The notes: a model not told the origin generated them from the sequence alone. 48,866 nucleotides of DNA from Pseudomonadota bacterium (GCA_021847305.1 JAJZTZ010000002.1:1-48866), one strand, 5' to 3'; positions 17,071-36,474 are shown, counted from the stretch's first letter. Numbers and translations are program-made.

Positions 17071-18267
17071 CTAATCGAGCAGCGCTTGCCAGAGCGCAGC
17101 TCCTCGCAGATAGGCGTCTTCCCATGCGCGCGCGGCAACCGGCAAACGCGCGTCATTCTGCATTGCCATGGCTTGCTGCAGTGCGCCCCCCAGTTCTTCA
17201 ACCCCGATACAGTGGGGCATTCCGTCTATTTCCCAGGTTTCCGCGTAGGCAGATTGTTTGGTGGTTTTATCCATCAGGGTCGGGTGTCGCAGGTTTACGC
17301 GCGGCAGGCCGTAGGCCATGGCCACGATACGGCCGTGCAGGCTGCTGCCGCAATAAAGCCGGCTAGAGGCAAGCAGCGCACAGATGTTCCAGATATTGAG
17401 ATTCTCATAGATAAGCGCCATGCCGGGCGGCAGACGGGTTAGCAGGCGCCGGTAAGGCTCCAGGTCGTCATGCCAGGGGGCGGCCCCGGCGCGGAACAGG
17501 ACAATGCCAAGTTTTTCGCTGACAGCAAACTGCTGCAGCTGCCGGGCCAACTGGTCAAGCGTGGCGTCATCAGCAAAGTCGGCGCTGAACTGTACGGCCA
17601 GATAGCCATTGGGCCAGTTGGCGCGGATCGTCGCCAGGCATGCGTCCTGCGCGACAGCCGCAATCCGGTACTGAAACAGGTGGCGTACAAGTACGGCCGA
17701 GTCGGGCAGCAAATGGGCAGCGATACCTGCTGCATGCACGGCGGCGAGCGTGACGCGATCGCGCACACCGAGGAAATCGGCGGCGCGCAGAGTCTGCAGT
17801 GTGGTGTCGGCTACATCGTGCTTTGCCAGTTCGATTCCGCCCACGGCATTGAATATCCAGCGCCCCGGTTGCCTGAAAACTGAAGGTGGTACCGCGTAGG
17901 GGGCGGCACGCTGGCTGCCGGTTTGCGTTGCCGCCCATTGCTCGCGTGCGCCCGGGTCAGGTTCGTAGCGGGCGATGGCATGGGCGGCGTCGGTTTCGTT
18001 TTGCAGCATCACGGCCGCATCCCAGTTGCTGCAGGTCAGCAGCTCGCCACCGGCGTGAATGAAGTGCACACGCTGCCCGGCGGTCTGGTCCATGGCTTGT
18101 GTCAGGGAAAGAGTCTGATGTCCGCCCCATTGCGACAGGTCGCGTCTCGCGAGCCCTGTGATGATGCAGGGGCGGTCGTGCAGCAGGGTTTGTACGATGT
18201 GGGGGAAAAGCAGGTCGCCCAGGTTGTGCCGGTCAAACGCGCCGAAAACGATGACGGGCGTAGCCAT
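17071..18267 (-). CDS. Polysaccharide pyruvyl transferase family-like protein, 398 aa
   Basis: N-terminal VIVFGAFDRHNLGDLLF and C-terminal SRLYCGSSLHGRIVAMAYGLPRV resemble the two conserved blocks of the pyruvyl-transferase (CsaB/WcaK) fold. The call is motif memory only. Confidence 0.5.
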   Translation of the reverse strand: MATPVIVFGAFDRHNLGDLLFPHIVQTLLHDRPCIITGLARRDLSQWGGHQTLSLTQAMDQTAGQRVHFIHAGGELLTCSNWDAAVMLQNETDAAHAIARYEPDPGAREQWAATQTGSQRAAPYAVPPSVFRQPGRWIFNAVGGIELAKHDVADTTLQTLRAADFLGVRDRVTLAAVHAAGIAAHLLPDSAVLVRHLFQYRIAAVAQDACLATIRANWPNGYLAVQFSADFADDATLDQLARQLQQFAVSEKLGIVLFRAGAAPWHDDLEPYRRLLTRLPPGMALIYENLNIWNICALLASSRLYCGSSLHGRIVAMAYGLPRVNLRHPTLMDKTTKQSAYAETWEIDGMPHCIGVEELGGALQQAMAMQNDARLPVAARAWEDAYLRGAALWQALLD

Positions 18268-18273
18268 ATCGGG

Positions 18274-18819
18274 TTACTGGACGCGGTCTTGCCGCCGGCG
18301 CCAATACCACAGTACATACAGGCGCCAGCCCAGCCGCGACAGCAGGTAGCCGAGCAGGGCTGACAGGCTGGCCAGCATCAGCAGACCGAGCAGGAACGAC
18401 GGTCCGAGCGAGACAACCCAGCTTAGCAGGGCCGGCAGCAGTTTCGACCAGTCGGTATCGTGCCAGTCGAAGTCCAGGCTGGGCAGTGCGCCGACACTTT
18501 GTCCGGTGACCAGGCTGCCGAGCCAGTAAGCCAGGGCAAACAGAAAAGGGGTCGTGACAGGGTTGGTGATCCAGGTGGACGCCACGGCTACCGGCAGATT
18601 GACGCGAAAGGCGATGGCCAGCAATGCAGCGGTGAGCATCTGCAGCGGCAGTGGGTTGTAGGCGGCGAAAAGGCCGAGGGCAAGGCCGGCAGAAACCGAT
18701 TTGCGATTGAGATGCCACAGGTTCGGGTGATGCAGAAAGCGGGTGAAGCGCGCAAGGTGCGGATGGTTGCGTACCATCTCGTGGCTGGGTAAAAATTTAC
18801 GCAACAGCTTGCGCGGCAT
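18274..18819 (-). CDS. DUF2062 family membrane protein, 181 aa
   Basis: Signature opening RKFLPSHEMVRNHP.L..F...LHHPNLWHLNRKSVS.G.A.GLF....P.P.Q, followed by 3-4 TM helices. Sits 7 nt upstream of the pyruvyl-transferase-like gene. Confidence 0.8.
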   Translation of the reverse strand: MPRKLLRKFLPSHEMVRNHPHLARFTRFLHHPNLWHLNRKSVSAGLALGLFAAYNPLPLQMLTAALLAIAFRVNLPVAVASTWITNPVTTPFLFALAYWLGSLVTGQSVGALPSLDFDWHDTDWSKLLPALLSWVVSLGPSFLLGLLMLASLSALLGYLLSRLGWRLYVLWYWRRRQDRVQ

Positions 18820-20303: not shown

Positions 20304-20377
20304 GCGAAACTCGGCAACAGGTTGGCAAAGATGCTATTTTACGACAGAGTCAAACAACAACGATAGCCGCATTGTCG

Positions 20378-22153
20378 ATGACCACACCTGTTGACCCATT
20401 GTTTCAGGCCTTTCTTGAACAGGCCCGGCTGGCAGATGAATTTCTGGCGGCGGGCCGCTTTGCCGATGCGCGTCAGCTGATAGGCGATTTGCTGCTGGTG
20501 GATCCAGCTAATGCGGTTTTGCACCTGCAACTGGGCGCCTGCTGTCACGCTCTGCTTGATTATCCGGCTGCCCGCGCGGCACTGGAACGGGCCGTAGCGC
20601 TTGATCCACTGCTGGCCGACGGCTGGGCTGATCTCGGCGCCGTGCTGCAGACTCAGCGGGCCACGGCCGAGGCGGAGGCGGCATTTCGCCGGGCCCTGCA
20701 GCTTGATCCGGGTCACCCCCAGGCACTGCTTAATCTGGGACACCTGCTGCGCGACAAGGGGCGTCTGATGGAAGCACGGCAGTGCTACAGCGCTTTACTC
20801 GAACAGGGGCACTATCCTTTGCTGGCAATACGGCTCGCGACCCTGTTGCCGGCGGTTTATGCTTCAAGCGAAGAAGCGGAATCGTGTTTTGCTAACATTC
20901 ATAACAAACTGGCTGCTCTGGAGCACCAGTCTCTCTCCAGTTGCCTGGACCCCATTGCGTGCGGCGGTGGCAACGCCTTTTATCTGGCCTATCAGGGTAG
21001 GCCGGTTGCTGCTTATCAGCGGCGCATTGCCGCACTTTATCGACGCATGTACGATCCGCCGTATAAAGTTGCCCGCAAGCCGAGCAAGGAGCAGAAGCGC
21101 CGGGTAGCTTTTGTGTCTGCCTTTTTGCGTGAACATACCATCGGCCATTTGCTGGCAGGCGTGATCAGCCGTTTGCCCCCCGACCGTTTTGATGTGTTTG
21201 TACTGTTGCTGGGAGCGCCGCCGGATGATTTAAGCCAGCAGCTGGCTGCAGGAGTACAGCATTTCGAGCATCTTCCGGGCAGCGACGTCAATGCAATTGC
21301 CGGGCGCATTGCTGCTTTGCAGCTGGATGTGCTGGTGTATGCCGATATCGGTATGGAACCGGTCAGTTACTTCCTGGCATTCAACCGGCTTGCTCCGGTG
21401 CAGGCCGTACTGTGGGGGCACCCCGTTACGACGGGAATTGATACAGTTGATTATTATGTCAGCAGCGAGGCGCAGGAAACGCCGGGCAGCGAGGCGGAGT
21501 ACAGCGAGCAACTGGTGCGCCTGCCACGTTTGCTGAGCTGGTATGAGGCGCCGCCGCAGGTGCAACGCAGCGCTCAAGATTTTGGCTTGAATGCCGATAG
21601 TTTTCTCTATGTTTGCCCGCAGAGTCTGTTCAAGTTTCACCCTGACTTTGATGTGCTGCTGCGGCAGATATTGTTGCAGGATCCGTCCGGTTATCTCGTG
21701 TTGATGCAAGGTCATCAACCGGAGTGGACGGAGCAATTACAGGCGCGTTTCAGCAACACTCTGCCGGATGTGTTCGACAGGATCGTCTGGCTGCCCAGGC
21801 TGGCATATGCAGAGTACCTTGGTTTGCTGACGTGTGCCCATGTGATGCTCGACCCGCTGTATTTCGGCGGCGGAAAAACGACGCTCGATGCCTTGTCTGT
21901 GGGTTTGCCGGTAGTGACGTTACCCGGTAGGACAATGCGTAGCCGTGGGACCGTAGCGTGTTGTGCGCAGATCGGCTGGTTTGCCGGTGTGGCTCAGTCG
22001 CCGGATGACTACGTCAAACGGGCTGTCGCCCTGGCACGCGAATTTGGGGCTACCGAGAGGCAGGCGCTGGCCGAGTTGGCACGCGGTTTGCAAAAAGACC
22101 AGTTGGCTGTAAATGCGTTCGCCGATTGGTTGAGTGCCGCTGCAGTCGGCTAA
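20378..22153 (+). CDS. TPR-repeat protein fused to a SPINDLY/OGT-like (GT41) glycosyltransferase domain, about 591 aa
   Basis: The N-terminal ~150 aa are TPR repeats. The C-terminal blocks are typical of bacterial GT41: RVAFVSAFLREHTIGHLL, WGHPVTTGIDTVDYYVSS, YSEQLVRLP, FKFHPDFD, LDPLYFGGGKTTLDALSVGLPVVTLPG. The track ORF starts at TTG 20372; the ATG at 20378 is preferred. Confidence 0.85.
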   Translation: MTTPVDPLFQAFLEQARLADEFLAAGRFADARQLIGDLLLVDPANAVLHLQLGACCHALLDYPAARAALERAVALDPLLADGWADLGAVLQTQRATAEAEAAFRRALQLDPGHPQALLNLGHLLRDKGRLMEARQCYSALLEQGHYPLLAIRLATLLPAVYASSEEAESCFANIHNKLAALEHQSLSSCLDPIACGGGNAFYLAYQGRPVAAYQRRIAALYRRMYDPPYKVARKPSKEQKRRVAFVSAFLREHTIGHLLAGVISRLPPDRFDVFVLLLGAPPDDLSQQLAAGVQHFEHLPGSDVNAIAGRIAALQLDVLVYADIGMEPVSYFLAFNRLAPVQAVLWGHPVTTGIDTVDYYVSSEAQETPGSEAEYSEQLVRLPRLLSWYEAPPQVQRSAQDFGLNADSFLYVCPQSLFKFHPDFDVLLRQILLQDPSGYLVLMQGHQPEWTEQLQARFSNTLPDVFDRIVWLPRLAYAEYLGLLTCAHVMLDPLYFGGGKTTLDALSVGLPVVTLPGRTMRSRGTVACCAQIGWFAGVAQSPDDYVKRAVALAREFGATERQALAELARGLQKDQLAVNAFADWLSAAAVG

Positions 22154-22220
22154 GATGCCTTCATGGTGTTGCGGTTGTTCTGTAACGCCATGATTGTAAA
22201 TATTAATTATAAGGACGGGG

Positions 22221-23675
22221 ATGCCAGACGGAATGACTGACGGTAATTGGCTCGAGCAGGGCATTACTGCTCACGACAGGGGAGATTTTGCCGGTGCGGT
22301 TGCCGCCTACCGGCAATTTTTGTCATTGACTCCAGGAAACGTCGACGTCCTGACCTTGCTTGGCAACGCCTTGCAGCAATCCGGCGATTACCCCGGAGCC
22401 ATTGCAGTCTATGCCGATGCGCTTACATTGCAGCCGGAAAATGCTGTGCTGCAAAACAATACCGGCGTGGCTTTGCGGCAGCAGGGCTATCTGGACGATG
22501 CGCTGGATTGCTTTCTCAATGCCATCAACCTGGCACCCTCTTATGTTGATGCCTGGTTGAATATCGGTTCAGTGTTGAATATCCAGGGGCGGTTGGAGCA
22601 TGCTGCCACGGCTTTCAACCGCGTGCTTGATCTGGAGCCGCAAAATCCCAAAGTGCATGTTGGCCTGGGCAATACCTTGTCGCGCGCAGGTTTGTTTGAT
22701 GCTGCTCTCACTTCATACGAAACGGCTTTGCTGCTTGAGCCCGGTAATACCGATGCCCGCTGGGGGCGCGGTCTGGTTAATTTGAGTCTGGGGCAATGGG
22801 ACACTGCCTGGCAGGATTACGAACTGCGTTTCCGTGTGCAGACAGCCTATCCGTTTACCTATGACAAGCCGCGCTGGCGGGGTGAAGGCTTTGCCGGCAA
22901 AACTCTGCTGATACACGATGAAATCGGTTACGGCGATGTGTTCCAGTTTTCGCGCTATTTCCCTCGTGTGAAACAGCGCGGCGGGCGGGTTTTGCTGGAA
23001 GTGAAGCCAGGTCTCAAGCATCTGTTTGAGGGTTTTCCTGGAGTCGACGAAGTGCGCGAGCGCGGCACTCAGCCGCAGTCTGAAGCCGATTTTGATCTGG
23101 TTGTGCCACTGGAAAGCCTGCCCGGCATCTTTGCCACGCGTGTTGATACGATTCCACCTGTTGTGGCTCCTGCCGTGCCCGAGTCGTTGCAGGTGGTCTG
23201 GCAGGAAAGACTGGCTGCCCTGTCCGGCCGTAAAGTCGGCATCGTCTGGGCGGGCAATCCCAACAGCGCCTTCGATGCCGAGCGTTCCATGCAACTCACG
23301 GACTTGCTGCCGCTGCTGCGCGCCGCGAGTGATTGCAGTTTTGTCAGCTTGCAGGTGGGGGCGTCCAGCGAGCAGTTGCAGCATGCTGATCTAGCCATTC
23401 TTGATGCTTCGTCATGGCTGACTGATTTTTCCGAGACAGCCGCAGCCATCCAGTCGCTGGATCTGGTGATTACGGTGGAAACCTCCGTCGCGCATCTGGC
23501 CGGCATGCTTGGCAAGCCCACTTGGGTCATGCTGGCCAAAGTGCCGGCATGGCGCTGGGGGGTAGATGGCGACGGTACGCCCTGGTATCCGAGCATGAAA
23601 CTCTATCGCCAGACTGAAAGCGGCAATTGGAGCAGCGTGCTGGATGCTGTGGCCAAAGACCTCGGAGCTATCTGA
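22221..23675 (+). CDS. TPR-repeat protein fused to a GT9-like (heptosyltransferase-fold) glycosyltransferase domain, 484 aa
   Basis: About 200 aa of TPR repeats, then the GT9-like blocks [26 protein letters not shown], and [23 protein letters not shown]...WRW. It is a paralog of 33772..35463. Confidence 0.85.
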
Positions 23676-24445
23676 TGAAGGCTGTCATTCTGGCCGGCGG
23701 CCTGGGTACGCGCATCAGCGAGGAATCCCACCTGAAACCGAAGCCGATGATCGAAATCGGCGGCAAGCCGATTCTCTGGCACATCATGAAATCGTACTCG
23801 CACCACGGCATCAATGATTTCATCATTTGCCTGGGTTACAAGGGCTATGTCATCAAGGAATACTTCGCCAACTATTTCCTGCACATGTCCAATGTCACGT
23901 TCGATATGGCGAACAACAAGATGGAAATCCACCAGAATTATGCCGAACCCTGGCGCGTGACGCTGGTCGATACCGGCGCTGAGACGATGACCGGCGGGCG
24001 CCTCAAGCGGGTGCAAGAGTATCTGGGTGACGAAACGTTCTGTTTTACCTATGGCGATGGCGTTTCCGATGTGAATATTTCGGAGTTGGTGCGTTTTCAC
24101 GAAGCGCATGGCAAAAAAGCCACTGTGACGGCGATTCAGCCGCCGGGTCGATACGGCGCCTTGAAGCTGGATGATTCTGCTTCGGTAATGCACTTTCAGG
24201 AAAAGCCTGCCGGGGACGGAGCCTGGATCAACGGCGGTTTCTTCGTACTGCAGCCCTCTGTCATTGACTATATTGCCGGTGATCACTCCAGTTGGGAAGG
24301 GGAGGCACTTGAACGCATTGCGGCTGAAGGCGAATTGAAAGCTTATCAGCATCGCGGATTCTGGCAGGCGATGGATACGCTACGCGACAAAACCCAGTTG
24401 GAAGAACTTTGGGCAAGGACGAACCCGCCGTGGAAGGTCTGGTAG
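23675..24445 (+). CDS. rfbF: Glucose-1-phosphate cytidylyltransferase, 256 aa
   Basis: [59 protein letters not shown]... is near-canonical RfbF/DdhA. The ATG at 23675 overlaps the upstream TGA by 1 nt. Confidence 0.92.
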
Positions 24446-24448
24446 AGC

Positions 24449-25519
24449 ATGTTCGGCGGCGTATATTCTGGTAAACGGGTACTGATTACCGGGCATACCG
24501 GCTTCAAGGGTAGCTGGCTGGCGCTATGGCTTAAAGAGCTGGGCGCGACAGTGACAGGCCTGGCGCTCGAGCCGGAAGCCGCTCCCAGTCACTGGGAAGC
24601 GCTCGGACTCGGCATTGACAGTCACATTGTCGATATCCGTGATTACCCGGCAGTGCAGCGGGTGTTTGACGCAACACAGCCAGAAATTGTGTTTCATCTT
24701 GCCGCCCAGTCTCTTGTTCGCCGCTCCTATCGCAATCCGCTGGATACCTGGTCGGCTAATGTCATGGGTACTGCCTGCCTGCTGGAAGCCTGTCGCAATA
24801 CGCCAGCTGTACGCGCAGTTGTGGTCGTTACGACGGATAAGGTGTACGACAATCAGGAATGGCCCTGGGGCTATCGGGAGAACGATCGACTCGGTGGTCA
24901 TGATCCCTACAGCGCTTCCAAGGCAGCTAGCGAACTGGTGGCTGACAGCTACCGCAAGTCTTTTTTCTCCGCTGCTAGTGCGCCCTTGCTGGCAACGGCG
25001 CGGGCCGGTAATGTCATAGGCGGCGGAGACTGGTCAGAAGACCGACTTATTCCCGATCTGGTACGCGCTGTAAACCGGTCGGTAAATCTGGAAATCCGTT
25101 CGCCCAATGCCACGCGACCATGGCAGCATGTACTCGACTGCCTGTCCGGCTATTTGCAGCTCGGACAGGGGCTGTTACAGGGCAACCCGGATCTCGCAAC
25201 AGCATGGAATTTCGGTCCTGCAGCCAGTGACAACCGCACGGTCGCGCAGATACTGGCCATGCTGACGGAGCACTGGCCTGAAGTCCGCTGGTCGCTTGCT
25301 GCCAATGCTGATCTTCACGAAGCCAGCCAGCTTTATCTCGATAGCGCCAAGGCAAAGCAGGTGCTGCGCTGGCGGCCTGTGTGGGGACTTGAAGGGGCTG
25401 TCGCTGCGACGGCAGCATGGTATCGAGCTTATGCAGTGGGTCAGATAGAGTCGCGCCAGCAGCTGGCCGACTATTTTCGCGCGGCACAGGGTGCGGGTGT
25501 GGAATGGGCCAAAACTTGA
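24449..25519 (+). CDS. rfbG: CDP-glucose 4,6-dehydratase, 356 aa
   Basis: KRVLITGHTGFKGSWLALWL..LGA.VTG (Rossmann), the catalytic YSASKA (YxxxK), and a length and C-terminus typical of RfbG/DdhB. Directly follows rfbF. Confidence 0.92.
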   Translation: MFGGVYSGKRVLITGHTGFKGSWLALWLKELGATVTGLALEPEAAPSHWEALGLGIDSHIVDIRDYPAVQRVFDATQPEIVFHLAAQSLVRRSYRNPLDTWSANVMGTACLLEACRNTPAVRAVVVVTTDKVYDNQEWPWGYRENDRLGGHDPYSASKAASELVADSYRKSFFSAASAPLLATARAGNVIGGGDWSEDRLIPDLVRAVNRSVNLEIRSPNATRPWQHVLDCLSGYLQLGQGLLQGNPDLATAWNFGPAASDNRTVAQILAMLTEHWPEVRWSLAANADLHEASQLYLDSAKAKQVLRWRPVWGLEGAVAATAAWYRAYAVGQIESRQQLADYFRAAQGAGVEWAKT

Positions 25520-26067
25520 AAATTCATGCTACCGCGATTGAAGGCGTGGTTTTAGTCGATACCCGGGTGTTAGAAGATGAGCGAGGTGCTTTTTCGCGTT
25601 TGTATTGCGAACGAGAGCTGGCATCTGTACTGAGGCAACGTCATATAGTGCAGGTCAACCGGTCGCTTACGCGAAAGTCCGGCGCTATCCGTGGCATGCA
25701 TTTCCAGCATGCGCCTCATGCTGAAATGAAGCTGATCCGCTGTCTCCGCGGGCGAGTGTGGGATGTCGCTGTGGATATTCGGGCAGGATCCCCGACATTT
25801 CTGCACTGGCATGCCGAGGAACTGACGCCTAATAACGGCAGAATGATGGTAGTGCCGGAGGGGTGCGCGCATGGTTTTCAGGTGCTGGAAGACGATAGCG
25901 AACTGCTTTATCTGCATACGGCGTTTTATGAGCCGAGCGCAGAAGCCGGCTTGCTTTTCGATGATCCCCGTCTGGCGATCAAATGGCCCTTGCCGGTAAC
26001 TGAACTTTCCCGGCGTGATCGTGAACATGCTCCCATTGCCGGTGATTTTGCGGGAATTCGCTTATGA
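25504..26067 (+). CDS. RmlC-like cupin sugar-nucleotide 3,5- (or 5-/3-) epimerase, 187 aa
   Basis: Start placed at the ATG at 25504 (MGQNLKIHATAIEGVV...), overlapping rfbG by 16 nt. RmlC-type blocks: DERG.F, RGMHFQ..PHAE.KLIRC..G.VWDVAVDIR, VPEG.AHGF..L.D....LY....Y.P..E.G...DDP.L.I.WP. Confidence 0.85.
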   Translation: MGQNLKIHATAIEGVVLVDTRVLEDERGAFSRLYCERELASVLRQRHIVQVNRSLTRKSGAIRGMHFQHAPHAEMKLIRCLRGRVWDVAVDIRAGSPTFLHWHAEELTPNNGRMMVVPEGCAHGFQVLEDDSELLYLHTAFYEPSAEAGLLFDDPRLAIKWPLPVTELSRRDREHAPIAGDFAGIRL

Positions 26068-27287
26068 AATGCCGTCACTGCGGTCAGCCGCTGGAAAATG
26101 TCTTTCTCGATCTGGGTTTTGCCCCGCCATCGAATGCCTATTTGAATGAAGCTGATCTGACTGCACCGGAACTCTATTTCCCCCTCAAACTGTATGTGTG
26201 CGACCATTGCTGGCTGGTGCAGACGATCGATTACAGTCGTGCTGACGAACTGTTCAGTCATGACTACGCCTATTTTTCCTCTGTTTCAAAAACCTGGCTT
26301 GATCATGCCGAGCGCTACAGTGTGAAGATGATCGACCGGTTCGGTCTGGGGCCGCACAGTCATGTGGTCGAAATCGCCTCCAACGACGGTTATCTGCTGA
26401 AAAATTTCGTCGCCCGGAATATTCCTTGCCTGGGTATAGAACCTACTGCCAGCACCGCACAAGCTGCGCGTGCGCTGGGAATCCCCGTGCTGCAAGAGTT
26501 TTTCGGCGAGTCTTTGGCTCATCGTCTGGCCGGCGAAGGCAGGCAAGCTGATCTGCTGGCGGGTAACAACGTGTTTGCCCATGTACCCGATATCAATGAC
26601 TTTACCCGCGGCCTGAAGGTTCTCCTAAAGCCGGGTGGGGTGGTCACGCTCGAATTTCCGCATTTGATGCGCCTGCTGGAGTTCGGTCAATTTGATACGG
26701 TTTATCACGAGCATTTTTCCTACCTGTCTCTGTATACCGTTTCACACATTTTTGCCGAAGCGGGTTTGCGCGTTTGGCTGGTCGAAGAGCTGCCGACACA
26801 TGGCGGCAGTCTGCGAGTGTATGGCTGCCATGACGAGGATGCTCGGGCTGAAGATGAATCGGTGGCGCGCATTCTGGCTGAAGAAGAACACCGCAGAATG
26901 CGCGATTTGGCTTTGTATCTTGCCTTTCAGGCGACGGCAAACCGCATCAAGGACGATTTGCTGACGTTTCTGCTTGAGCAGAAACGCGCAGGGAAACGGG
27001 TCATGGCCTATGGTGCAGCAGCTAAGGGCAACACGCTGCTCAACTATGCCGGTGTGAAACCGGATCTGCTGGCTGGCGTGTATGACGCCGCTCCGTCGAA
27101 GCAGGGCAAGTTCATGCCCGGCAGCCATATCCCCATTTTGGATCCGCAACGCATTATTGAAGACAGGCCTGATTACCTGCTCATTCTGCCCTGGAATATT
27201 GCCGCAGAAGTACGGACACAGCAGGCAGTTATTACTTCATGGGGTGGACATTTCGCGGTGGCGGTACCGTCATTGGAGGTGAGTTGA
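26064..27287 (+). CDS. SAM-dependent NDP-hexose C-methyltransferase (TylC3/TcaB9-like), 407 aa
   Basis: N-terminal four-Cys motif (CRHCG...CDHC), a class I SAM fold (VVEIASNDGYLL), and the family-typical EHFSYLSL...GGSLRVY and C-terminal YGAAAKGNTLLNY...PGSHIPI blocks. ATGA overlap with the epimerase gene. Confidence 0.8.
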   Translation: MKCRHCGQPLENVFLDLGFAPPSNAYLNEADLTAPELYFPLKLYVCDHCWLVQTIDYSRADELFSHDYAYFSSVSKTWLDHAERYSVKMIDRFGLGPHSHVVEIASNDGYLLKNFVARNIPCLGIEPTASTAQAARALGIPVLQEFFGESLAHRLAGEGRQADLLAGNNVFAHVPDINDFTRGLKVLLKPGGVVTLEFPHLMRLLEFGQFDTVYHEHFSYLSLYTVSHIFAEAGLRVWLVEELPTHGGSLRVYGCHDEDARAEDESVARILAEEEHRRMRDLALYLAFQATANRIKDDLLTFLLEQKRAGKRVMAYGAAAKGNTLLNYAGVKPDLLAGVYDAAPSKQGKFMPGSHIPILDPQRIIEDRPDYLLILPWNIAAEVRTQQAVITSWGGHFAVAVPSLEVS

Positions 27288-28156
27288 TGCGGATTGCCGT
27301 GACCGGAGCCAACGGATTTATCGGTAAACACGTGGTGGCGCAGTTGCTGGAGCGTGGATGTGAGGTTGTTGCTTTGTTGCGGGAACCCGCCAGGCGGCCC
27401 GAAACATGGTCTGGACGGGTAGAGATTGTGCCATTTGATCTCGGCGAAGCGAGTGTCGGGATGTATGACCGGCTGCAGCGCCCTGATGTGCTTATTCACT
27501 TGGCTTGGGGTGGTTTGCCCAACTACCGTTCGTTGCAGCATTTTGAAGTTGAGTTGCCCCGCCAGTACCAATTCCTATCGACGCTTGTGCGCGAGGGGCT
27601 GCCGGCGATGCTGGTTGCCGGGACTTGTTTCGAGTACGGCATGCAAGCCGGTATGCTGCGTCCGTCCATGCCGTCCATGCCGACTAACCCCTATGGCTAC
27701 GCTAAAGATGCATTGCGGCGACAATTGCAAATGCTGCAAATCGAGCAAAGTTTTAATCTGATTTGGGGACGAGTATTTTACCTGTATGGTGAAGGGCAAT
27801 CGCCCACATCACTTTATCCCAAACTGGAAGCCGCTGTCGCAGCGGGTGCCAGCGTATTCGATATGTCCGGCGGTGAACAGCTAAGAGACTATCTGCCTGT
27901 CGCCGAGGTTGCCAGGCGAATTGTCGTGATGGCTCTGTCCGGCCGAAATCTGGGAGTGCAGAATATCTGTTCGGGCCAGCCTATTTCCGTGCGCCGATTG
28001 GTTGAGACATGGATCGAGGCAAACAATTGGACTATCCGGCTCAATCTGGGTGCATTTCCGTACCCGGACTACGAACCCATGGCATTCTGGGGCGAGGATT
28101 CATTTTCGCTGCTGCGGCTTGAACAGGCGAAAGTGGCCGCTGAAGGGGTTGCATGA
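27287..28156 (+). CDS. NAD(P)-dependent SDR epimerase/reductase (probable sugar 4-ketoreductase), 289 aa
   Basis: MRIAVTGANGFIGKHVV Rossmann motif and the YGYAK catalytic YxxxK. The ATG at 27287 overlaps the upstream TGA by 1 nt. Confidence 0.85.
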   Translation: MRIAVTGANGFIGKHVVAQLLERGCEVVALLREPARRPETWSGRVEIVPFDLGEASVGMYDRLQRPDVLIHLAWGGLPNYRSLQHFEVELPRQYQFLSTLVREGLPAMLVAGTCFEYGMQAGMLRPSMPSMPTNPYGYAKDALRRQLQMLQIEQSFNLIWGRVFYLYGEGQSPTSLYPKLEAAVAAGASVFDMSGGEQLRDYLPVAEVARRIVVMALSGRNLGVQNICSGQPISVRRLVETWIEANNWTIRLNLGAFPYPDYEPMAFWGEDSFSLLRLEQAKVAAEGVA

Positions 28157-28812
28157 GCGAAGTAAAATTGCGCGCAGGTTCGGTGAGTCAGTTGGCTGAT
28201 TATGTGATTCGTCAGCTCGATCATCTGTTTCCGGTTGAGCCGAATGGTGCTGAACTGTTGCAATTGCATGTGCCCGGAGCTCTGCAGCGTATCCGGCCGA
28301 TTCTTTCAGCTTGTCGGGCGTTTCGGCAGGACGAGTTCGATCATTTTAACTCCATGCAATATGCCACTTTCGTGTACTTGCTTGCCAACGAATTGTGGGT
28401 ACACGGTCTGGACCAGGAACAGTTTGCTCTGTGCGAGAGACTGTTCCTGCTTAATAAGGCGTTGGCCGGGCTGGATATGTATTACAAAATTGACATGCCT
28501 GAAGTTTTTTTTCTCTCGCATGGCAGCGGTTCGGTACTGGCCAATACTGTCTACGGCAACAAGCTCGTACTCTTCCACAACGTGACGGTCGGCCGCTATG
28601 GCGCAAGTCGGCCGACCATCGGGCAGCGGGTTATTTTATTTCCCAATTCAATTGTTGCCGGTAATTCCGTTATCGGGGATGGGGCGGTAATTTCCGCTGG
28701 AGTCTCTGTTATCAACCAGACGGTACCGGATGAATGTCTGGTATTTGCCGGTCCTCAGGGATTGGTGTTCAAACCCAAGAAAAAAAACTACGAGTCAGAG
28801 TTTTTCCGATGA
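28153..28812 (+). CDS. Left-handed beta-helix (hexapeptide-repeat) acyl/acetyltransferase, serine-acetyltransferase-like, 219 aa
   Basis: Helical N-terminal half, then hexapeptide repeats (VTVGRYG...IGQRVILFPNSIVAGNSVIGDGAVISAGVSVINQTVPDECLVFAG). ATGA overlap with the reductase gene. Confidence 0.8.
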   Translation: MSEVKLRAGSVSQLADYVIRQLDHLFPVEPNGAELLQLHVPGALQRIRPILSACRAFRQDEFDHFNSMQYATFVYLLANELWVHGLDQEQFALCERLFLLNKALAGLDMYYKIDMPEVFFLSHGSGSVLANTVYGNKLVLFHNVTVGRYGASRPTIGQRVILFPNSIVAGNSVIGDGAVISAGVSVINQTVPDECLVFAGPQGLVFKPKKKNYESEFFR

Positions 28813-28854
28813 GATTGCTGCGTCGGCAATGCCAATTTAGAAAGTACTGAGTAC

Positions 28855-31800
28855 ATGAAAAGTAAAAGTCCTCAATTAACCGTAGGTTTGCCTGTTTTTA
28901 ACGGCGAGAAGTTTGTCGGCAATGCAATCGAGTGCATGCTGGAACAAACTTATTCGGACTTTGTTTTCATTATTTCCGACAACGCTTCCACCGATGCAAC
29001 AGAAGAAATTTGTCGTCAATACGAGAAGTTCGACAAGCGCATCAAGTACTACCGCAATGAACAAAATCTCGGGGCGGCGAAGAATTTCGAGCTTCTCTAT
29101 CAAAAGGTCGAGACGCCTTTCTGGACGCCAATCTCACATGATGATTATTTTTCTCTCAATTTTCTCGAGTCCTGTCTCGGCAAACTGATCGACAATCCGG
29201 ATGCTGTTTTGGCCGCCCCGGCGCAGATTGCCGCAATTAATGCAAATGGTTTTATCAAGCGGATTGAGCGGAATTTCAACACTGAAGGCATGGGGCTCTC
29301 GGAAAGGCTGTGCCATTTACTCGACCGCATTATGTGGGTGTCGTTCTACGGTGTCAGCCGTACCTCCGTGTTTGGCGAGGTCTGGTCGAAAATCGGACCC
29401 TACAAGACGCGTTTTGGCGCCGACGTGATATTTCTGGCCGGTATGCTGCTGAAAGGGCAGATTGTTTCGGCTGATGGGGCGACATTTTTTTACCGTGAAG
29501 CGGATGCGGAAAAGCCCGCGGCCGTTTACGCACAGGATTTACTGCCAGGTCAGGCTGTGTCATCGATGCCGTACACAGGACTGCTGGAGTCGATTCTTGA
29601 AGTGCTGTTCCTGTTTGCCGACGTGGCCGTGGAGCAAAGAGCGATAATCAGCAATGACATCCTTCAAACCGTATTGAAACAGCCTGGGTGGGCTTATCAA
29701 CTGGAGCGGGAACAACGTAATCAGGAAGGTGACACAGCTGCCCCTGCTTCTGCGGCGGCAGAACAGATTACCTCAGCTCCCGTCGCAGTTGTTCCGGCTT
29801 CGACCAATCAATTGCCGCATTCAACTGCTGCTGCCGTAACAGAGAAACCCGGTTTTACGGCGAATTTCGGCATCAATGTGGTCGGGCATGTCTCTGGCAA
29901 TCTTGGTTTGGGCGTGTCGGCTCGAAGTGTCATCAAGTCTTTACTGGAAAATGGTATTCCACTGGCAATTTTTGATGTCGACCCAGGTCTAGGGCGAGGG
30001 CGCAAAGATCTGACTTTTGCCCAGTATCATGTAAAGTCGCTGGAAGAATTGGTTTACCCGATAACACTGTTCATGATGCCCCCAACCATTGGCTGGCTGA
30101 AAGAGGCAATACCCGAACTTTTTCCCGCTGACAAGCTTTTGATTGCATACAGTATGTGGGAATTGCCTGTCCTGCCGCCTCAATGGATGGAGTCGCTGGA
30201 GACATTTGATGTGCTGGTGGCCGGCTCAGAGTTTATTCGGCATGCGTTTGAATTCAATTTGTCCAAAGTTCAGACAATTGTAACCAAGCACCCGCTTTAT
30301 TTGCCCGATAACATTGTGGGGGATCGGGCCCGATTCAACCTGCCTGCTGATAAAACCATTTTTGTCACCGCTTTTGAGCCGAATAGCGATCCGATGAGAA
30401 AAAACCCTCGTGGAACTCTGCGCGCCTTTCTTTCAGCATTTCCGGATGATGATTCTGTTTGTCTAGTCGTTAAAGTCAATAATGCCTATGCGGATGGAAT
30501 TCTGCATTCATCGGTGGTCGAATTGCAGAGTATCGCAAGTGATGACAAGCGGATTGTCTTTATCACAGCGAGCATGCCGTATGTCGACGTGCTGAGACTT
30601 TATGCCTCCTGCGATGTTTTTGTCTCACTTCATCGGGCGGAGGGATTGGGCCTTGGCTTAATGGAGGCCATGGCGTTGGGTAAGCCGGTTATAGCAACTG
30701 GCTGGTCAGGCAATATGTCCTTCATGGATCATACCTGTGCCTGTCTGGTGCCCTATGTGCTTATTCCCGTCAACGGCAGTATTCCCGCATACACAAGTGC
30801 GGAGCTTGGGCGTGAGGCAAAGTGGGCAGAGCCTTCGCTCGCGCATGCCTCAGCCTGGATGCGGCAATTAGCGGCTTCCCAGGAGCTGCGCAGTGAAATA
30901 GGGCAGGCTGCAGCTCGTGCTATGGCTAGGCATCACAAGGAGGCAAGCGCAGCCGAGTTTGTACGCGAGCTGCACTCGATCTGGCAGCATCAACAATTCC
31001 TGCCCCGTTCTGTTGAAATTGACGAAGGCGCAGGTGCCATTGCTGGTCTAAATGCGGTCGACCAAGCATATCAGATATGGCGCAATAAGCATTCAATGCA
31101 GGAAATCGATGCCCAGATTCTGGCCGAGCGTATGGTGACCCAATGGCAATCCAAACCGGTCTTCCATTTTGTGGTTCTGGTGGTGCAGGGGCAGGAGCAG
31201 GAACTGGCGGATGCCATTGATAATTTGGCTGGTCAGATGTATGGCAGCTGGCATTTGACCGTGATTGCTGATTTCCCCTCGCCGGACAGCGCCTTCGGTC
31301 AGGCTGAACACCTCCAGTGGATTCGGATGCAGCCAGATTGGCTGCTATCCGACGTGCTGAATGTTGTAGTTGATCGCAGAAAAGGCGACTGGTTTGCCGT
31401 CACCGCTCCGGGGTTTGTCCTGGAGCCGCAAACCTTGCTGGTGCTGGCCAACTACATCAATGCCTATCCCGACTGGAAGCTGATTTATACAGATGAAGAC
31501 CGGTTAAACAAAAACGGCCGCCATGTGTTGGCCCGTTTCAAGCCGGAGTTCAACCTGGAGTGGCTGCGTGCGTCCAATTTTCTGGGTGACCTGGTTTTCT
31601 GCAGTGGGGAGGCAATTGAGGCCGTAGGCGGGTTCGTCAATTTGCCGGGCGCCTATCAGTATGACCTGACGCTTCGACTCTATGAGATGTTCGGTGAAAG
31701 CGTTATGGGGCATGTGGATGACGTGCTGGTATCTTTCTCTGAACAATTCTGGTCTTTGGTCGATGGCGAGGCGGAAGAGGAAGCCGTGCGTCAGCATTTG

Positions 31801-33768
31801 CAACGATTGAATGTGTCGGCGGATGTGTCGGCGGGTTATCAGCCGGGTACGCGCAGGGTGATGTACCAGTGGGATACCCAGCCCGCTGTTTCGATCATTG
31901 TTCCCAACAAGGATAGCCTCGAATATTTGCAACCTTGCCTGCAGAGCCTGTTCGAGAAGACCGCTTACCCGGATTTCGAAGTTCTGGTGGTGGACAACGG
32001 CAGTACCGACCCGGATGTGCTTGAGTTTTATGAGCAGATGCTGGCGCAGGAGCCGCGACTGCGGCTGTTAAAGTATCCGCAGCCGTTCAACTTCTCGGTG
32101 ATGAACAATCTGGCTGCACGGGAAGCCCGCGGCGACTATCTGGTGCTCCTCAACAATGATACCCAGATTGTTCAAGCGGACTGGCTGACTCGTCTGATGT
32201 CCTATGGGCAGCGGCCGGATGTCGGCATCGTCGGTGCCCGCCTGGTCTATCCGGAAACAGGCATACTACAGCATGCAGGGGTTGTTCTGGGCATGCAGGG
32301 CATTGCAGACCACATATTCAATGGCCAGCTCAAAATGGACGAGCCGGGGTATCTTGGCCGTGCGCATGTCGATCAGGAATATTCGGCGGTGACAGCCGCC
32401 TGCTTGCTGGTGCGCAAATCCCTGTACGATCAGGTGGGGGGGCTGGATGAAGAAGCCTTCAAGGTTTCCTATAACGATGTAGACCTGTGCCTGAAGATCA
32501 GGCAGTTGAATTACAAAATCATCTGGACGCCTTATGCGACTGTGGTCCATCACGGGTCGGTGTCGCAGAAGGCTTCAAATGTCGATCTGATGAAGCGGGC
32601 ACTGAATGCCCAGCGCTTTGAGGCGGAGCAGCATGCCATGATGAGAAAATGGCTGCCGCAACTTGCCAATGATCCCGCATACAACCGCCATCTAAGCCTG
32701 ATGACGCCGGATTGTCGCGCGGAAAGCAGCATCGTCATTGACTGGGATACCCGCTTCCATGATCGCCGCCGGATTCTCGGGGTGCCATTGACCGGAGGGT
32801 CGGGCGAGTACCGGGTAATCAGCCCGTTTAGGGCGATCAGTCGTGCCGGTTTGGCTCAGACAGCGATTGTGCAGGCGGCCAAAATGTTTGAGACGCGGGT
32901 CATACTGCCGGTTGAGCTTGAACGCGCGGCTCCGGATGTTCTGGTGTTGCAGTCCGCTGTAGATGACAGGCAGCTGCAAGCCTTGCAGGAATACAAGGAA
33001 TTCAATCCCTCGGTGAAACGCATTTTCACGCTGGATGATCTGGTTACTCAGATTCCGCAGAAAAGCGCCTCGTATCGACACTCCTACCGCGATGCAAAAC
33101 CGCGTTTGCGGAAAGCATTGGCCCTGTGTGACAGGGCCATAGTGAGTACCGAGCCGCTGGCGGAACTGTGCCGTTCCATGATCGACGATGTCAGGGTGCT
33201 GCCCAACAGGCTGGAGGCAGCTATCTGGGGTGGGCTGACTTCACAGCGTGGTCATGGCAAGAAACCTCGAGTAGGCTGGGCAGGCGCGCAGCAGCATGCC
33301 GGTGATCTGGCCTGGATAACTGATGTGGTTAGAGAGACGGCGGGCGAAGTGGAGTGGGTGTTTCTGGGTATGTGCCCGGATGAAATCCGGCCGTTTGTCC
33401 ATGAGGTCCATGATTTCGTACTGTCTTTCTACGATTACCCGGCCAAATTGGCCAGCCTGAATCTTGATCTGGCGATTGCACCGCTGGAAATGCTCGCTTT
33501 CAATGAGGCGAAGAGCAACTTGCGTCTGCTCGAGTATGGGGCAATGGGGTGGCCGGTCATTTGTACCGATATTTACCCCTATCAGACCAATGCCGCACCG
33601 GTATGCCGTCTGCCGAACGATGTGGCTGCATGGGTCAATGCAATTCGCGAACGGATCTATGATCTTGATGCCGCCTACAGGGAAGGCGATAGGCTGAAGG
33701 CCTGGGTGGCGCAGCATTACATTCTTGAGAATAAGCTGGATGACTGGTTTGACGCCCTGGCCCGATGA
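28855..33768 (+). CDS. Giant multi-module glycosyltransferase, 1637 aa (GT2, GT4-like GT-B, degenerate GT2-like, GT2, C-terminal GT-B-like)
   Basis: Module 1 (about 28870-29500): GLPVFNGEKFV...IISDNASTD...SHDDY. Ala/Pro/Ser/Thr linker (about 29720-29860). Module 2 (about 29866-30960): GT4 EX7E motif, RAEGLGLGLMEAMALGKPVIAT. Module 3 (about 31160-31800): FHFVVLVV...LIYTDEDRL. Module 4 (about 31885-32560): VSIIVPNKD...VVDNGSTD...LLNNDT...GIVGARLVYP. Module 5 (about 32760-33765): PRVGWAGAQQH...LDLAIAPL...NEAKSNLRLLEYGAMGWPVICT. Confidence 0.85.
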   Translation: MKSKSPQLTVGLPVFNGEKFVGNAIECMLEQTYSDFVFIISDNASTDATEEICRQYEKFDKRIKYYRNEQNLGAAKNFELLYQKVETPFWTPISHDDYFSLNFLESCLGKLIDNPDAVLAAPAQIAAINANGFIKRIERNFNTEGMGLSERLCHLLDRIMWVSFYGVSRTSVFGEVWSKIGPYKTRFGADVIFLAGMLLKGQIVSADGATFFYREADAEKPAAVYAQDLLPGQAVSSMPYTGLLESILEVLFLFADVAVEQRAIISNDILQTVLKQPGWAYQLEREQRNQEGDTAAPASAAAEQITSAPVAVVPASTNQLPHSTAAAVTEKPGFTANFGINVVGHVSGNLGLGVSARSVIKSLLENGIPLAIFDVDPGLGRGRKDLTFAQYHVKSLEELVYPITLFMMPPTIGWLKEAIPELFPADKLLIAYSMWELPVLPPQWMESLETFDVLVAGSEFIRHAFEFNLSKVQTIVTKHPLYLPDNIVGDRARFNLPADKTIFVTAFEPNSDPMRKNPRGTLRAFLSAFPDDDSVCLVVKVNNAYADGILHSSVVELQSIASDDKRIVFITASMPYVDVLRLYASCDVFVSLHRAEGLGLGLMEAMALGKPVIATGWSGNMSFMDHTCACLVPYVLIPVNGSIPAYTSAELGREAKWAEPSLAHASAWMRQLAASQELRSEIGQAAARAMARHHKEASAAEFVRELHSIWQHQQFLPRSVEIDEGAGAIAGLNAVDQAYQIWRNKHSMQEIDAQILAERMVTQWQSKPVFHFVVLVVQGQEQELADAIDNLAGQMYGSWHLTVIADFPSPDSAFGQAEHLQWIRMQPDWLLSDVLNVVVDRRKGDWFAVTAPGFVLEPQTLLVLANYINAYPDWKLIYTDEDRLNKNGRHVLARFKPEFNLEWLRASNFLGDLVFCSGEAIEAVGGFVNLPGAYQYDLTLRLYEMFGESVMGHVDDVLVSFSEQFWSLVDGEAEEEAVRQHLQRLNVSADVSAGYQPGTRRVMYQWDTQPAVSIIVPNKDSLEYLQPCLQSLFEKTAYPDFEVLVVDNGSTDPDVLEFYEQMLAQEPRLRLLKYPQPFNFSVMNNLAAREARGDYLVLLNNDTQIVQADWLTRLMSYGQRPDVGIVGARLVYPETGILQHAGVVLGMQGIADHIFNGQLKMDEPGYLGRAHVDQEYSAVTAACLLVRKSLYDQVGGLDEEAFKVSYNDVDLCLKIRQLNYKIIWTPYATVVHHGSVSQKASNVDLMKRALNAQRFEAEQHAMMRKWLPQLANDPAYNRHLSLMTPDCRAESSIVIDWDTRFHDRRRILGVPLTGGSGEYRVISPFRAISRAGLAQTAIVQAAKMFETRVILPVELERAAPDVLVLQSAVDDRQLQALQEYKEFNPSVKRIFTLDDLVTQIPQKSASYRHSYRDAKPRLRKALALCDRAIVSTEPLAELCRSMIDDVRVLPNRLEAAIWGGLTSQRGHGKKPRVGWAGAQQHAGDLAWITDVVRETAGEVEWVFLGMCPDEIRPFVHEVHDFVLSFYDYPAKLASLNLDLAIAPLEMLAFNEAKSNLRLLEYGAMGWPVICTDIYPYQTNAAPVCRLPNDVAAWVNAIRERIYDLDAAYREGDRLKAWVAQHYILENKLDDWFDALAR

Positions 33769-33771
33769 TTT

Positions 33772-35463
33772 ATGGGGTATGGCCTAGTGGAAGCCGGGCA
33801 GGAGCTCGCGCAGGCAATTTCGCTGCATATGGCCGAGCGGTTGGACGAGGCCGGCGCAATTTATATGCAGCTGCTGGCGCAGCAGCCTGAAAATCCAGAT
33901 CTACTGTTTCTGCTCGGGACACTCAGGGTGCAACAGGGGGCCCTGCATGATGCGCAGGCAGCCCTGTCAAATCTTCTGCGGGTCCATCCGCGGCATGTCG
34001 ATGGATGGGCGCAGCTGGCCGAAGTTTACCGCTCCATGGGGCAGATCGCCGAGGCGTTGCATTGCTATCGGCAGGTTCTGCTGCTGGCGCCGGAAAATGT
34101 GGCAGCGCGCACGGGTGAAGCCGCGTGCCTGGACGAGTTGCTCGCCAGTGCGCAGCAAGCCATGCAGGCGGCGCTGGATGCCTATCAGCAACGAGACTTT
34201 CCTGCAGCCATTCAATGGGCAACAGAATCCCTCAATCGCTTCCCAAGCGCAGTGGCCTGGAACAACTTGGGGGTGGTCTATAAAGAGCAGGGCAATCTGC
34301 CTGAAGCGGAAAATGCCCTGCGGCAGGCAATCAGCTTGGCACCGGATTATGCCGAGGCCTGGAGTAATCTGGGCAACGTCTATTGGGTGCAGTACCGCTA
34401 TGCAGATGCACTCGACCCATATGAAAGGGCTGTAAAACTGCAGCCGAACAACCCGGTTTCCTGGAATAACCTTGGCAATGGTTTGCAGGCGGCAGGTCGC
34501 CTGGATGAAGCTGTTGAGGCGTTTGAACGGGCGCTGCAACTTCAGCCTGACTTCGCCATGGCGCATTGGAATCATGGTATTGCGGCGTTGCTTAAAGGGG
34601 ATTACCGCACCGGCTGGGATGAATACGAGTGGGGGTTTGCCTGTGGGTTGCGTCCGTTAAAATTTCAATCTGTTCCGGTTTGGCAGGGTGAATCGGGCGC
34701 GCGCCTGATTGTGTATGCGGAACAGGGTTTTGGCGATGTGTTGCAGTTCGTTCGCTTCATGCATGTTTTGCCGGCCAAAGTAACCCGGCTGGCACTGGTT
34801 GTGCCGGTAGAGCTGCAGCGGCTCTTGCAGCGATCCTTTCCGGCGGTTCAAGTTGCCACAGAGTCGGGAGTGAATACGCAAGAATATACTGCCGTACTGC
34901 CCTTGATGAGTGTGCCGCATCGCTTGGGCCTGGTGGAGACGGCTGATTTGACCATCCCGGCACCCTATTTGAAAGTTGATCAGGCTAAAGCGACGCGCTG
35001 GCGGGAACGCATCTCCGGCAATGCCGGTATGCAGATCGGCATTGCCTGGCAGGGGAGTCGCAAGCACAAAAGTGACTTGCTTCGATCTGTACCGGCTGAG
35101 CAGCTGGTGCAGGCGTTGGCCGGAGGAGGTGTGTCGCTTCACAGTTTGCAGGCGGGGCCTGATGCGCCTGAAGCACCGCAGAACGTGACGGATTGGCGGG
35201 CAGAAATTCAAGATTTCGATGACCTTGCCGCTATAGTCAATGAGCTTGATTGTGTGGTAACGGTAGACACGGCCGTTGCACATCTGGCGGGTGCGCTGGG
35301 TAAACATGTCTACCTGCTTTTGCCTTTTGCACCTGACTGGAGGTGGGGGCGGTACTCTGAAAGTTGCGTCTGGTACGATCGGATGCACTTGATCAGACAG
35401 CCGTCACCAGGGGAGTGGGATGCAGTCATGCAGCGCCTGGAAGACGCGCTGATAAAAAAATAA
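33772..35463 (+). CDS. TPR-repeat protein fused to a GT9-like glycosyltransferase domain, 563 aa (paralog of 22221..23675)
   Basis: About 290 aa of TPR repeats, then LIVYAEQGFGDVLQFVRF, GIAWQGS, and VVTVDTAVAHLAGALGKHVYLLLP..PDWRW. Last gene before fliC. Confidence 0.85.
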   Translation: MGYGLVEAGQELAQAISLHMAERLDEAGAIYMQLLAQQPENPDLLFLLGTLRVQQGALHDAQAALSNLLRVHPRHVDGWAQLAEVYRSMGQIAEALHCYRQVLLLAPENVAARTGEAACLDELLASAQQAMQAALDAYQQRDFPAAIQWATESLNRFPSAVAWNNLGVVYKEQGNLPEAENALRQAISLAPDYAEAWSNLGNVYWVQYRYADALDPYERAVKLQPNNPVSWNNLGNGLQAAGRLDEAVEAFERALQLQPDFAMAHWNHGIAALLKGDYRTGWDEYEWGFACGLRPLKFQSVPVWQGESGARLIVYAEQGFGDVLQFVRFMHVLPAKVTRLALVVPVELQRLLQRSFPAVQVATESGVNTQEYTAVLPLMSVPHRLGLVETADLTIPAPYLKVDQAKATRWRERISGNAGMQIGIAWQGSRKHKSDLLRSVPAEQLVQALAGGGVSLHSLQAGPDAPEAPQNVTDWRAEIQDFDDLAAIVNELDCVVTVDTAVAHLAGALGKHVYLLLPFAPDWRWGRYSESCVWYDRMHLIRQPSPGEWDAVMQRLEDALIKK

Positions 35464-35473
35464 AAATAGGGCC

Positions 35474-35500
35474 TAAAGTTCTTGGTGGCACTGCCGATAA
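35474..35500 (+). promoter_or_regulatory. Sigma28 (FliA) class III flagellar promoter for fliC
   Basis: TAAAGTTC-N11-GCCGATAA (35474-35481 / 35493-35500). This has one mismatch to the enterobacterial consensus TAAAGTTT-N11-GCCGATAA. It lies about 97 nt upstream of the fliC ATG. Confidence 0.85.
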
Positions 35501-35596
35501 CCAACATGACAGCGGTTGAAATGTGGTTTGAGCCTCAACCGGGGTCTAAGGCTTAAACCTTGTTTTAATTGGTTCATCCGGTTAAGGAGAAAGAAA

Positions 35597-36451: not shown

Positions 36452-36474
36452 TTCTTCAGCGGGTAAGTGAAAAG

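Follow-up and report, generated by a model that had tools for sequence, protein, structure and literature searches.

Among described pathways, those leading to the cytidine diphosphate (CDP)-linked 3,6-dideoxyhexoses abequose, paratose, tyvelose and ascarylose share RfbF (DdhA) and RfbG (DdhB) with a six-gene sugar module that lies at 23675-28812 in a stretch of 48,866 nt from the genome of a Pseudomonadota bacterium (GCA_021847305.1 JAJZTZ010000002.1:1-48866; about 49 kb, hereafter the window). The module differs from these pathways in that the window contains no DdhC or DdhD, and a C-methylation branch takes the place of 3-deoxygenation. The pathway to L-mycarose, which is linked to deoxythymidine diphosphate (dTDP), follows the same logic as the module through TylC3/EryBIII, TylK/EryBVII and TylC2/EryBIV, namely C-3 methylation, epimerization by an RmlC-fold enzyme and 4-ketoreduction. 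The mycarose enzymes, like TcaB9, KijD1 and MtmC, work on dTDP-linked, 2,6-dideoxy or 3-amino substrates in antibiotic biosynthesis, whereas the window has CDP as the carrier, no genes for 2-deoxygenation and a surface-glycan context.

The lipooligosaccharide (LOS) cluster of Mycobacterium kansasii contains genes for a glucose-1-phosphate cytidylyltransferase, an epimerase/dehydratase, a "rhamnose epimerase" and a methyltransferase, all absent from M. marinum, and the M. kansasii LOS IV-VII bear the unique sugar N-acyl-kansosamine; of this cluster, only the glycosyltransferase MKAN27435 was studied (PMC4403928). We found that the MKAN27440-27475 region holds the same four genes in the same order as the window, at 69, 63, 60 and 68% identity, with a sugar C-methyltransferase (C-MT) of the same length, 407 aa. 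Beyond these four genes the two loci diverge. In M. kansasii, where the cassette serves a glycolipid, the next genes are those for a DegT aminotransferase, an ATP-grasp protein, a short-chain dehydrogenase/reductase (SDR), a TylF-type methyltransferase and then a polyketide synthase. In the window, genes for an SDR and a hexapeptide acyltransferase follow instead, genes for amination or O-methylation are lacking, and flagellin lies alongside. Kansosamine is 4-amino-4,6-dideoxy-3-C-methyl-2-O-methyl-L-mannose. The M. kansasii gene set matches the needs of this sugar, which argues for methylation at C-3 and for an L-series (5-epimerized) product in the C-MT subfamily.

A related gene set is found on pSymB of Sinorhizobium meliloti, where SMb21416-21418 are annotated as ddhA, ddhB and 'NDP-hexose 3-C-methyltransferase' (PMC4053727). 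This region encodes the same six enzyme types as the window, with rfbF, rfbG and the C-MT gene together and rfbC, an SDR gene and an acyltransferase gene close by. Its C-MT is 51% identical to that of the window, and a CmcI-like methyltransferase is also present. The order differs, however, in that the genes for RfbC, the SDR and the acyltransferase form a group of their own with a different orientation, and the locus does not lie beside flagellin. As for nucleotide sugars, Okuda, Suzuki and Suzuki (J Biol Chem, 1967-68) reportedly isolated CDP-vinelose from Azotobacter vinelandii. It is CDP-6-deoxy-3-C-methyl-2-O-methyl-L-talose, and we know of no assignment of genes to vinelose. As a CDP-linked 3-C-methyl-6-deoxy-L-hexose, it belongs to the product class predicted for the window. 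Vinelose is 2-O-methylated, whereas the window lacks a CmcI- or TylF-like O-methyltransferase and has an acyltransferase instead; vinelose would correspond to a variant of the cassette with an SDR and an O-methyltransferase.

Set against these systems, we consider it rather likely that the six genes form a nucleotide-sugar module within a flagellin glycosylation island, making a CDP-6-deoxy-3-C-methyl hexose, possibly O-acetylated, for the flagellin glycan. The module appears to be one variant of a widespread cassette for CDP-linked 3-C-methyl-6-deoxyhexoses, other variants of which carry an aminotransferase and/or an O-methyltransferase and would yield kansosamine-like and vinelose-like sugars. 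It is a new example rather than a new pathway, since the core cassette is widespread and the type of sugar already known. A preliminary description of this DNA knew of no standard pathway described for a CDP-linked C-methyl sugar, a claim of novelty that does not survive the occurrence of C-MT relatives in at least 586 species, the M. kansasii LOS cassette (PMC4403928), the S. meliloti annotation (PMC4053727) and the reported isolation of CDP-vinelose. The window copy is distinctive in its flagellin-island setting and in its acyltransferase, which takes the place of the O-methyltransferase found in most relatives.

Gene content and enzymes of the module

ORF listing and profile searches showed six consecutive, tightly packed genes on the + strand, in the order rfbF, rfbG, an RmlC-like epimerase gene, a TylC3/TcaB9-type C-MT gene, an extended SDR gene and a CysE/WcaB-like hexapeptide acyltransferase gene. 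The ORF listing, the Pfam and NCBIfam profiles and the motifs agree with the preliminary description on the genes and their coordinates, and all six are intact. Their most likely starts include 25504 for the RmlC-like gene and 27287 for the SDR gene, as chosen by gene callers on identical metagenome contigs. With these starts, neighboring genes overlap at four of the five junctions inside the module, first by 16 nt and then through ATGA, TGATG and ATGA, in this order. At the remaining junction, rfbF and rfbG do not overlap and are separated by a 3-nt gap. The exact C-MT protein is present in several metagenome assemblies, with the same neighbors.

The two entry enzymes were assigned by equivalog models. 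The protein predicted from rfbF/ddhA (23675-24445, +; 256 aa) matches the glucose-1-phosphate cytidylyltransferase model TIGR02623 at 470 bits against a cutoff of 300, and that from rfbG/ddhB (24449-25519, +) matches the CDP-glucose 4,6-dehydratase model TIGR02622 at 471 bits against a cutoff of 278. RfbG also carries TTDKVY, with its TDK, and YSASK, as expected from the signature of CDP-glucose 4,6-dehydratases, [ST]DK...Yx3K (PMC8987622, Table 1).

The third gene (25504-26067, +) encodes an RmlC-fold sugar-nucleotide epimerase of 187 aa, which matches PF00908 at 203 bits and TIGR01221 at 167 bits (cutoff 156). Its PDB matches are RmlC (1dzr, 129 bits), NovW (2c0z, 109 bits) and a 'Putative epimerase' (5buv, 74 bits), the last of which we take to be WbcA of Yersinia enterocolitica, from the CDP-6-deoxy-D-gulose route. 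Read by eye from the sequence, the His, Lys, Tyr and Asp of the protein appear to sit at the RmlC catalytic positions. Its predicted role is the 5- or 3,5-epimerization of a CDP-4-keto sugar.

The TylC3/TcaB9-type C-MT (26064-27287, +; 407 aa), dependent on S-adenosylmethionine (SAM), has a complete three-domain architecture, comprising the PF08421 zinc domain (78 bits), the SAM domain PF13489 (46 bits) and PF08484 (203 bits). The zinc cysteines form a CxxC...CxxC arrangement at C3/C6 and C46/C49. No NCBIfam model covers the protein. Three C-3 methyltransferases of solved structure, KijD1 (5t64, E = 1.6e-70), MtmC (4rv9) and TcaB9 (3ndi), align with it over its full length, with E values from 1e-65 to 1e-70. 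Its YAYF, AHVPD and YHEHF segments align with YPYH, CHIPY and YDEHF of KijD1, so the active-site Tyr, His and Y-x-E-H, which have catalytic roles in TcaB9 and KijD1, are kept. An identity as an O- or N-methyltransferase was rejected on the grounds of this domain architecture and the conserved active site. In the TylC3 reaction, C-3 methylation runs with inversion at C-3 (summarised in PMC3539893). The C-MT subfamily is very large and unusually conserved, with at least 70% identity in all 120 matches listed by the protein search.

The fifth gene (27287-28156, +) encodes an extended SDR of 289 aa and putative C-4 ketoreductase, which matches PF01370 at 97 bits and has the GxxGxxG and YxxxK motifs as GANGFIGK and YGYAK. 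The sixth (28153-28812, +) encodes a left-handed beta-helix (hexapeptide) acyltransferase of 219 aa, a candidate O-acetyltransferase. It matches Hexapep (PF00132) at 28.5 bits, with a cutoff of 27; its NCBIfam matches to EpsC, CysE and WcaB are weak and all below cutoff, and in the PDB it is closest to serine acetyltransferases, with 34 bits.

The absence of ddhC and ddhD, as claimed previously, was borne out for the window. The tblastn search for a DegT/E1- or E3-like gene in the window gave nothing better than E = 0.04, and Pfam scans found no E1/E3-type domain in any of its large ORFs. Nor does the whole window contain an aminotransferase gene or a CmcI- or TylF-like O-methyltransferase gene.

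The cassette in related genomes

A species-level genome scan with the C-MT found relatives in at least 586 species. From these we took the best 80 loci (L004-L083), in which the C-MT is 60-71% identical to that of the window, and searched them by tblastn with the window proteins. They span Proteobacteria, Bacteroidota, Planctomycetota, Acidobacteriota, Verrucomicrobiota, Mycobacterium and one Firmicute. Colinearity could be evaluated in the 75 loci with enough upstream sequence, and 54 of them have rfbF, rfbG, the RmlC-like gene and the C-MT gene in the same order and with the same spacing; most of the remainder retain at least one CDP gene nearby. Because order and spacing recur in this way, the gene arrangement is not due to chance, and because they do so in many phyla, the C-MT appears habitually to work behind CDP-glucose synthesis and 4,6-dehydration, that is, in a CDP context. 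It was too strong to say, as had been said, that rfbF and rfbG normally feed the 3,6-dideoxyhexose route; 3,6-dideoxyhexoses are not their only products, as the CDP-6-deoxy-D-gulose route, to which we assign the epimerase match 5buv, illustrates.

The gene directly after that of the C-MT was an SDR gene in 29 of the 80 loci and a DegT-type aminotransferase gene in 27. Four further loci have a small acyltransferase gene followed by an SDR gene, and in the other 20 we found something else or the end of the contig. A 4-keto group is usually either reduced or transaminated, and the alternation between SDR and DegT therefore suggests that the cassette product is a CDP-4-keto-6-deoxy-C-methylhexose and that the window SDR, which occupies this downstream, C-4-tailoring position, is its 4-ketoreductase. 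For both of these predictions the alternation is the best available evidence. Together with the colinear cassette and the M. kansasii cluster, it indicates that the product class proposed at the outset, a CDP-6-deoxy-3-C-methylhexose that may be O-acetylated, is probably right.

A CmcI-like methyltransferase, which the window does not have, lies within 7 kb of the cassette in 54 of the 80 loci; a CmcI- or TylF-like O-methyltransferase would be required for 2-O-methyl sugars such as vinelose or kansosamine. SDRs 43-55% identical to that of the window occur in 12 loci, seven of which also lack an O-methyltransferase, for example in a Bradyrhizobium (L051) and in a zetaproteobacterium with flagellin nearby (L042). 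Homologues of the acyltransferase were found in only two of the 80 (L023 and L067). Flagellin genes and/or genes for glycosyltransferases of GT41 type with tetratricopeptide repeats (TPR) lie near the cassette in 17 of the 80 loci; homologues of the TPR-GT41-like protein itself were found near it in 13. Culturable carriers with TPR-GT41 or flagellin genes close to the cassette include Cupriavidus necator, Neorhizobium galegae, Limnohabitans and Achromobacter. A separate case is a plasmid of Peteryoungia desertarenae (L084), which carries two divergent copies of the cassette back to back.

Branched 3-C-methyl sugars have been called rare in bacterial glycans (PMC9912281, PMC7203242). Despite this reputation, the cassette occurs in hundreds of species from many phyla. 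If it is assigned to 3-C-methyl-6-deoxyhexoses, genes would become available for two old orphan sugars, vinelose and kansosamine, thousands of entries named "class I SAM-dependent methyltransferase" could be better annotated, and CDP-dependent C-methyltransferases and epimerases would be added to the toolbox of glycoengineering. The gain from the window itself is modest, as it holds a slightly different copy, with an acetyltransferase for the O-methyltransferase, in an environmental flagellin island.

Flagellin island, predicted route and alternative explanations

In the window, the sugar-synthesis and glycosyltransferase genes are contiguous with fliC and fliD, over 20372-38242. The + strand run at 20372-35463 consists of a TPR-GT41-like gene, a TPR-GT9-like gene, the six sugar genes, a gene for a glycosyltransferase of 1637 aa and a second TPR-GT9-like gene, and in the promoter and terminator scan nothing rose above chance, which we take only to mean that the run has no obvious internal terminator. 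The first protein (20372-22153, +; 593 aa) combines TPR with a GT41-like domain and is a candidate flagellin glycosyltransferase (PF13844 at 66 bits, TPR families and an NGT-like NCBIfam match). The next protein (22221-23675, +; 484 aa; TPR families) joins TPR to a GT9-like domain at its C-terminus, and the stop codon of its gene overlaps the start of rfbF. Downstream of the module lie the 1637-aa glycosyltransferase (28855-33768, +), with a GT2-GT4-GT2 arrangement of three domains (two matches to PF00535, and PF13692/PF00534 and PF13641), and the second TPR and GT9-like protein (33772-35463, +; 563 aa; TPR families and a weak match to PF01075). Over its C-terminal 279 aa, the 22221-23675 protein shares 35% identity (E = 1e-42) with the C-terminus of its paralogue at 33772-35463. 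The island thus contains three TPR-linked candidate protein glycosyltransferases, one GT41-like and two GT9-like (heptosyltransferase-like). Homologues of the 1637-aa protein adjoin flagellin genes in two of the related loci (L062, 47% identity over 899 aa, and L029), and this protein alone may assemble a multi-sugar flagellar glycan.

The flagellin gene (35597-36451, +) encodes a protein of 284 aa, with matches to PF00669 and PF00700 and a Ser/Thr-rich central segment. About 95 nt upstream of its ATG, at 35474-35500 (+), lies the only exact match in the window to the established sigma-28 (FliA)-type promoter consensus, TAAA-N15-GCCGATAA. Because of this upstream consensus and of the AAGGAGA that precedes the ATG, the flagellin is probably the short, 284-aa protein and not the 311-aa ORF that starts with TTG. 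The gene for the flagellar filament cap, fliD, follows at 36938-38242 (+; PF07195 and PF02465).

Taken together, these genes suggest the following route. RfbF would form CDP-D-glucose and RfbG would convert it to CDP-4-keto-6-deoxy-D-glucose, both steps being predicted from the equivalog models. The C-MT would then move the methyl group of SAM to C-3, alpha to the 4-keto group, a regiochemistry suggested by its 68% identity to the M. kansasii enzyme. The RmlC-like enzyme would epimerize C-5, and perhaps C-3 before methylation, to give an L-series 4-ketosugar, which the SDR would reduce at C-4 to CDP-6-deoxy-3-C-methyl-L-talose or -L-mannose. For the steps from methylation to reduction, the proposal draws on homology, synteny and the correspondence with M. 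kansasii. O-acetylation by the hexapeptide enzyme, either of the sugar or of the glycan as it grows, may follow; of all the steps it is the weakest, and it is proposed from context. Gene context likewise suggests that the TPR-bearing GT41- and GT9-like proteins and the 1637-aa glycosyltransferase transfer the sugar and so build up an O-linked glycan on flagellin, in its surface segment rich in Ser and Thr. Flagellin O-glycosylated by such TPR-linked GT41/GT9-type enzymes with an acetylated 6-deoxy-3-C-methyl-L-hexose from a CDP donor would be an undescribed type of flagellar glycan, and the presence of the cassette in at least 586 species would make 3-C-methyl deoxysugars common surface sugars; we put this wider proposal forward only tentatively.

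Several observations weigh against this route. The SDR only weakly resembles known sugar 4-ketoreductases, with the epimerase MoeE5 as its best PDB match (73 bits), and the NCBIfam profile search gave no RmlD-family match for it; nor does an extended SDR fold distinguish a reductase from an epimerase. The acyltransferase clears the Hexapep cutoff only narrowly, and one of the two loci with a homologue (L023) also has an aminotransferase, so that N-acylation is possible in other contexts. The preference for C-3 over C-5 methylation comes from orthology to an M. kansasii gene of predicted function and from the structure of kansosamine. The C-MT homologue MtmC has been reported to be bifunctional, with a 4-ketoreductase activity of its own (PMC3539893). 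The searchable literature yielded no biochemical work on a CDP-dependent sugar C-methyltransferase or on another enzyme of this CDP branch. The sugar is probably used on flagellin, as judged from gene context, and the visible portion of the genome amounts to 49 kb.

Of the other explanations, the one with most in its favor is that the module supplies a polysaccharide of the cell envelope (O-antigen, capsule or exopolysaccharide) and that its adjacency to fliC is incidental. In 63 of the 80 loci no flagellin or TPR-GT41 gene lies within 10 kb of the cassette, the M. kansasii cassette serves a glycolipid, and a polysaccharide pyruvyl transferase-like gene is found in the window at 17071-18267. 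Moreover, 3-C-methyl-rhamnose is known from the O-polysaccharides of Azorhizobium caulinodans, Phyllobacterium trifolii and Burkholderia andropogonis, going by the references cited in PMC7203242 and PMC5644692. The island itself points the other way, however. The module begins at the stop codon of a TPR-glycosyltransferase gene, with which it overlaps, and between it and the glycosyltransferase genes that end 130 nt before fliC no terminator-like signal rises above chance. TPR-glycosyltransferases are typical of protein-directed glycosylation, and profile scans of the island found no Wzx, Wzy or Wzz, no ABC exporter and no initiating phosphotransferase. We therefore regard an envelope polysaccharide as unlikely and favor use of the sugar on flagellin.

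The identity of the sugar leaves room for two further explanations. The C-MT could methylate C-5 as NovU does, giving a noviose-like CDP-5-C-methyl (gem-dimethyl) 6-deoxyhexose, as both C-3 and C-5 are alpha to the 4-keto group and the fold does not discriminate between them. The order of epimerase, C-MT and reductase mirrors novW-novU-novS, and NovW, with 109 bits, ranks high among the PDB matches of the epimerase, although true RmlC outscores it at 129 bits. The C-MT is, on the other hand, 68% identical to an enzyme of a cluster linked to a 3-C-methyl sugar, and the entry enzymes of the window are of the CDP type and not those of a dTDP-glucose entry (RmlA/RmlB type). The cassette occurs in at least 586 species, whereas 5-C-methyl sugars are to our knowledge confined to the aminocoumarin antibiotics, and methylation at C-5 is on balance highly improbable. 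Even less credence can be given to an ordinary 3,6-dideoxyhexose pathway with ddhC and ddhD elsewhere and a methyltransferase that is of the O- or N-type or inactive. With 49 kb of the genome visible, these genes could be distant; but the C-MT lacks neither the three domains nor the active-site residues of C-methyltransferases, the cluster offers no paratose or abequose synthase context, and the slot after the C-MT gene in the 80 loci, where no E1/E3 query was used, shows an SDR or a 4-aminotransferase. We rejected the ordinary 3,6-dideoxy pathway because the window lacks E1 and E3 and encodes an intact, conserved C-MT. Methylation at C-3 to a CDP-6-deoxy-3-C-methyl hexose remains the preferred reading.

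Origin and surroundings of the island

The island is flanked by the housekeeping genes gltX, lysS, prfB, recJ, mfd and accA. The best named matches of GltX are from Sulfuricellaceae, Sulfuricella and Sulfurimicrobium, at 72-77% identity, which suggests that the source is an uncultured, sulfur-oxidizer-like betaproteobacterium of the Sulfuricellaceae neighborhood. Most of the sequence on either side has a GC content of about 0.57-0.63, and at 28-31 kb the value falls to 0.50-0.52. The drop at 28000-31000 suggests that the acyltransferase gene and the start of the gene for the 1637-aa glycosyltransferase were acquired horizontally.

On the strand opposite to the island, between LolCD-like ABC transporter genes and gltX, the polysaccharide pyruvyl transferase-like gene (398 aa, 17071-18267) and a DUF2062 gene together occupy 17071-18819 (-). 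Upstream of the flagellar region, at 8270-14349 (-), lies a group of signaling genes, which encode a response regulator that has an EAL domain and two PAS histidine kinases, one of them (792 aa) a hybrid kinase with a receiver domain and the other of 709 aa. In prfB (about 4336-5440, -), a programmed +1 frameshift site, CTT TGA C, is found after 25 codons, at 5356-5362 (-). It is preceded by a GGGGG Shine-Dalgarno-like element, and the 347-aa ORF corresponds to the downstream frame. At the other end of the window, the gene at 44724-47123 (+) encodes a protein of 799 aa with an unusual mix of Ser/Thr protein kinase, HDOD and GAF domains.

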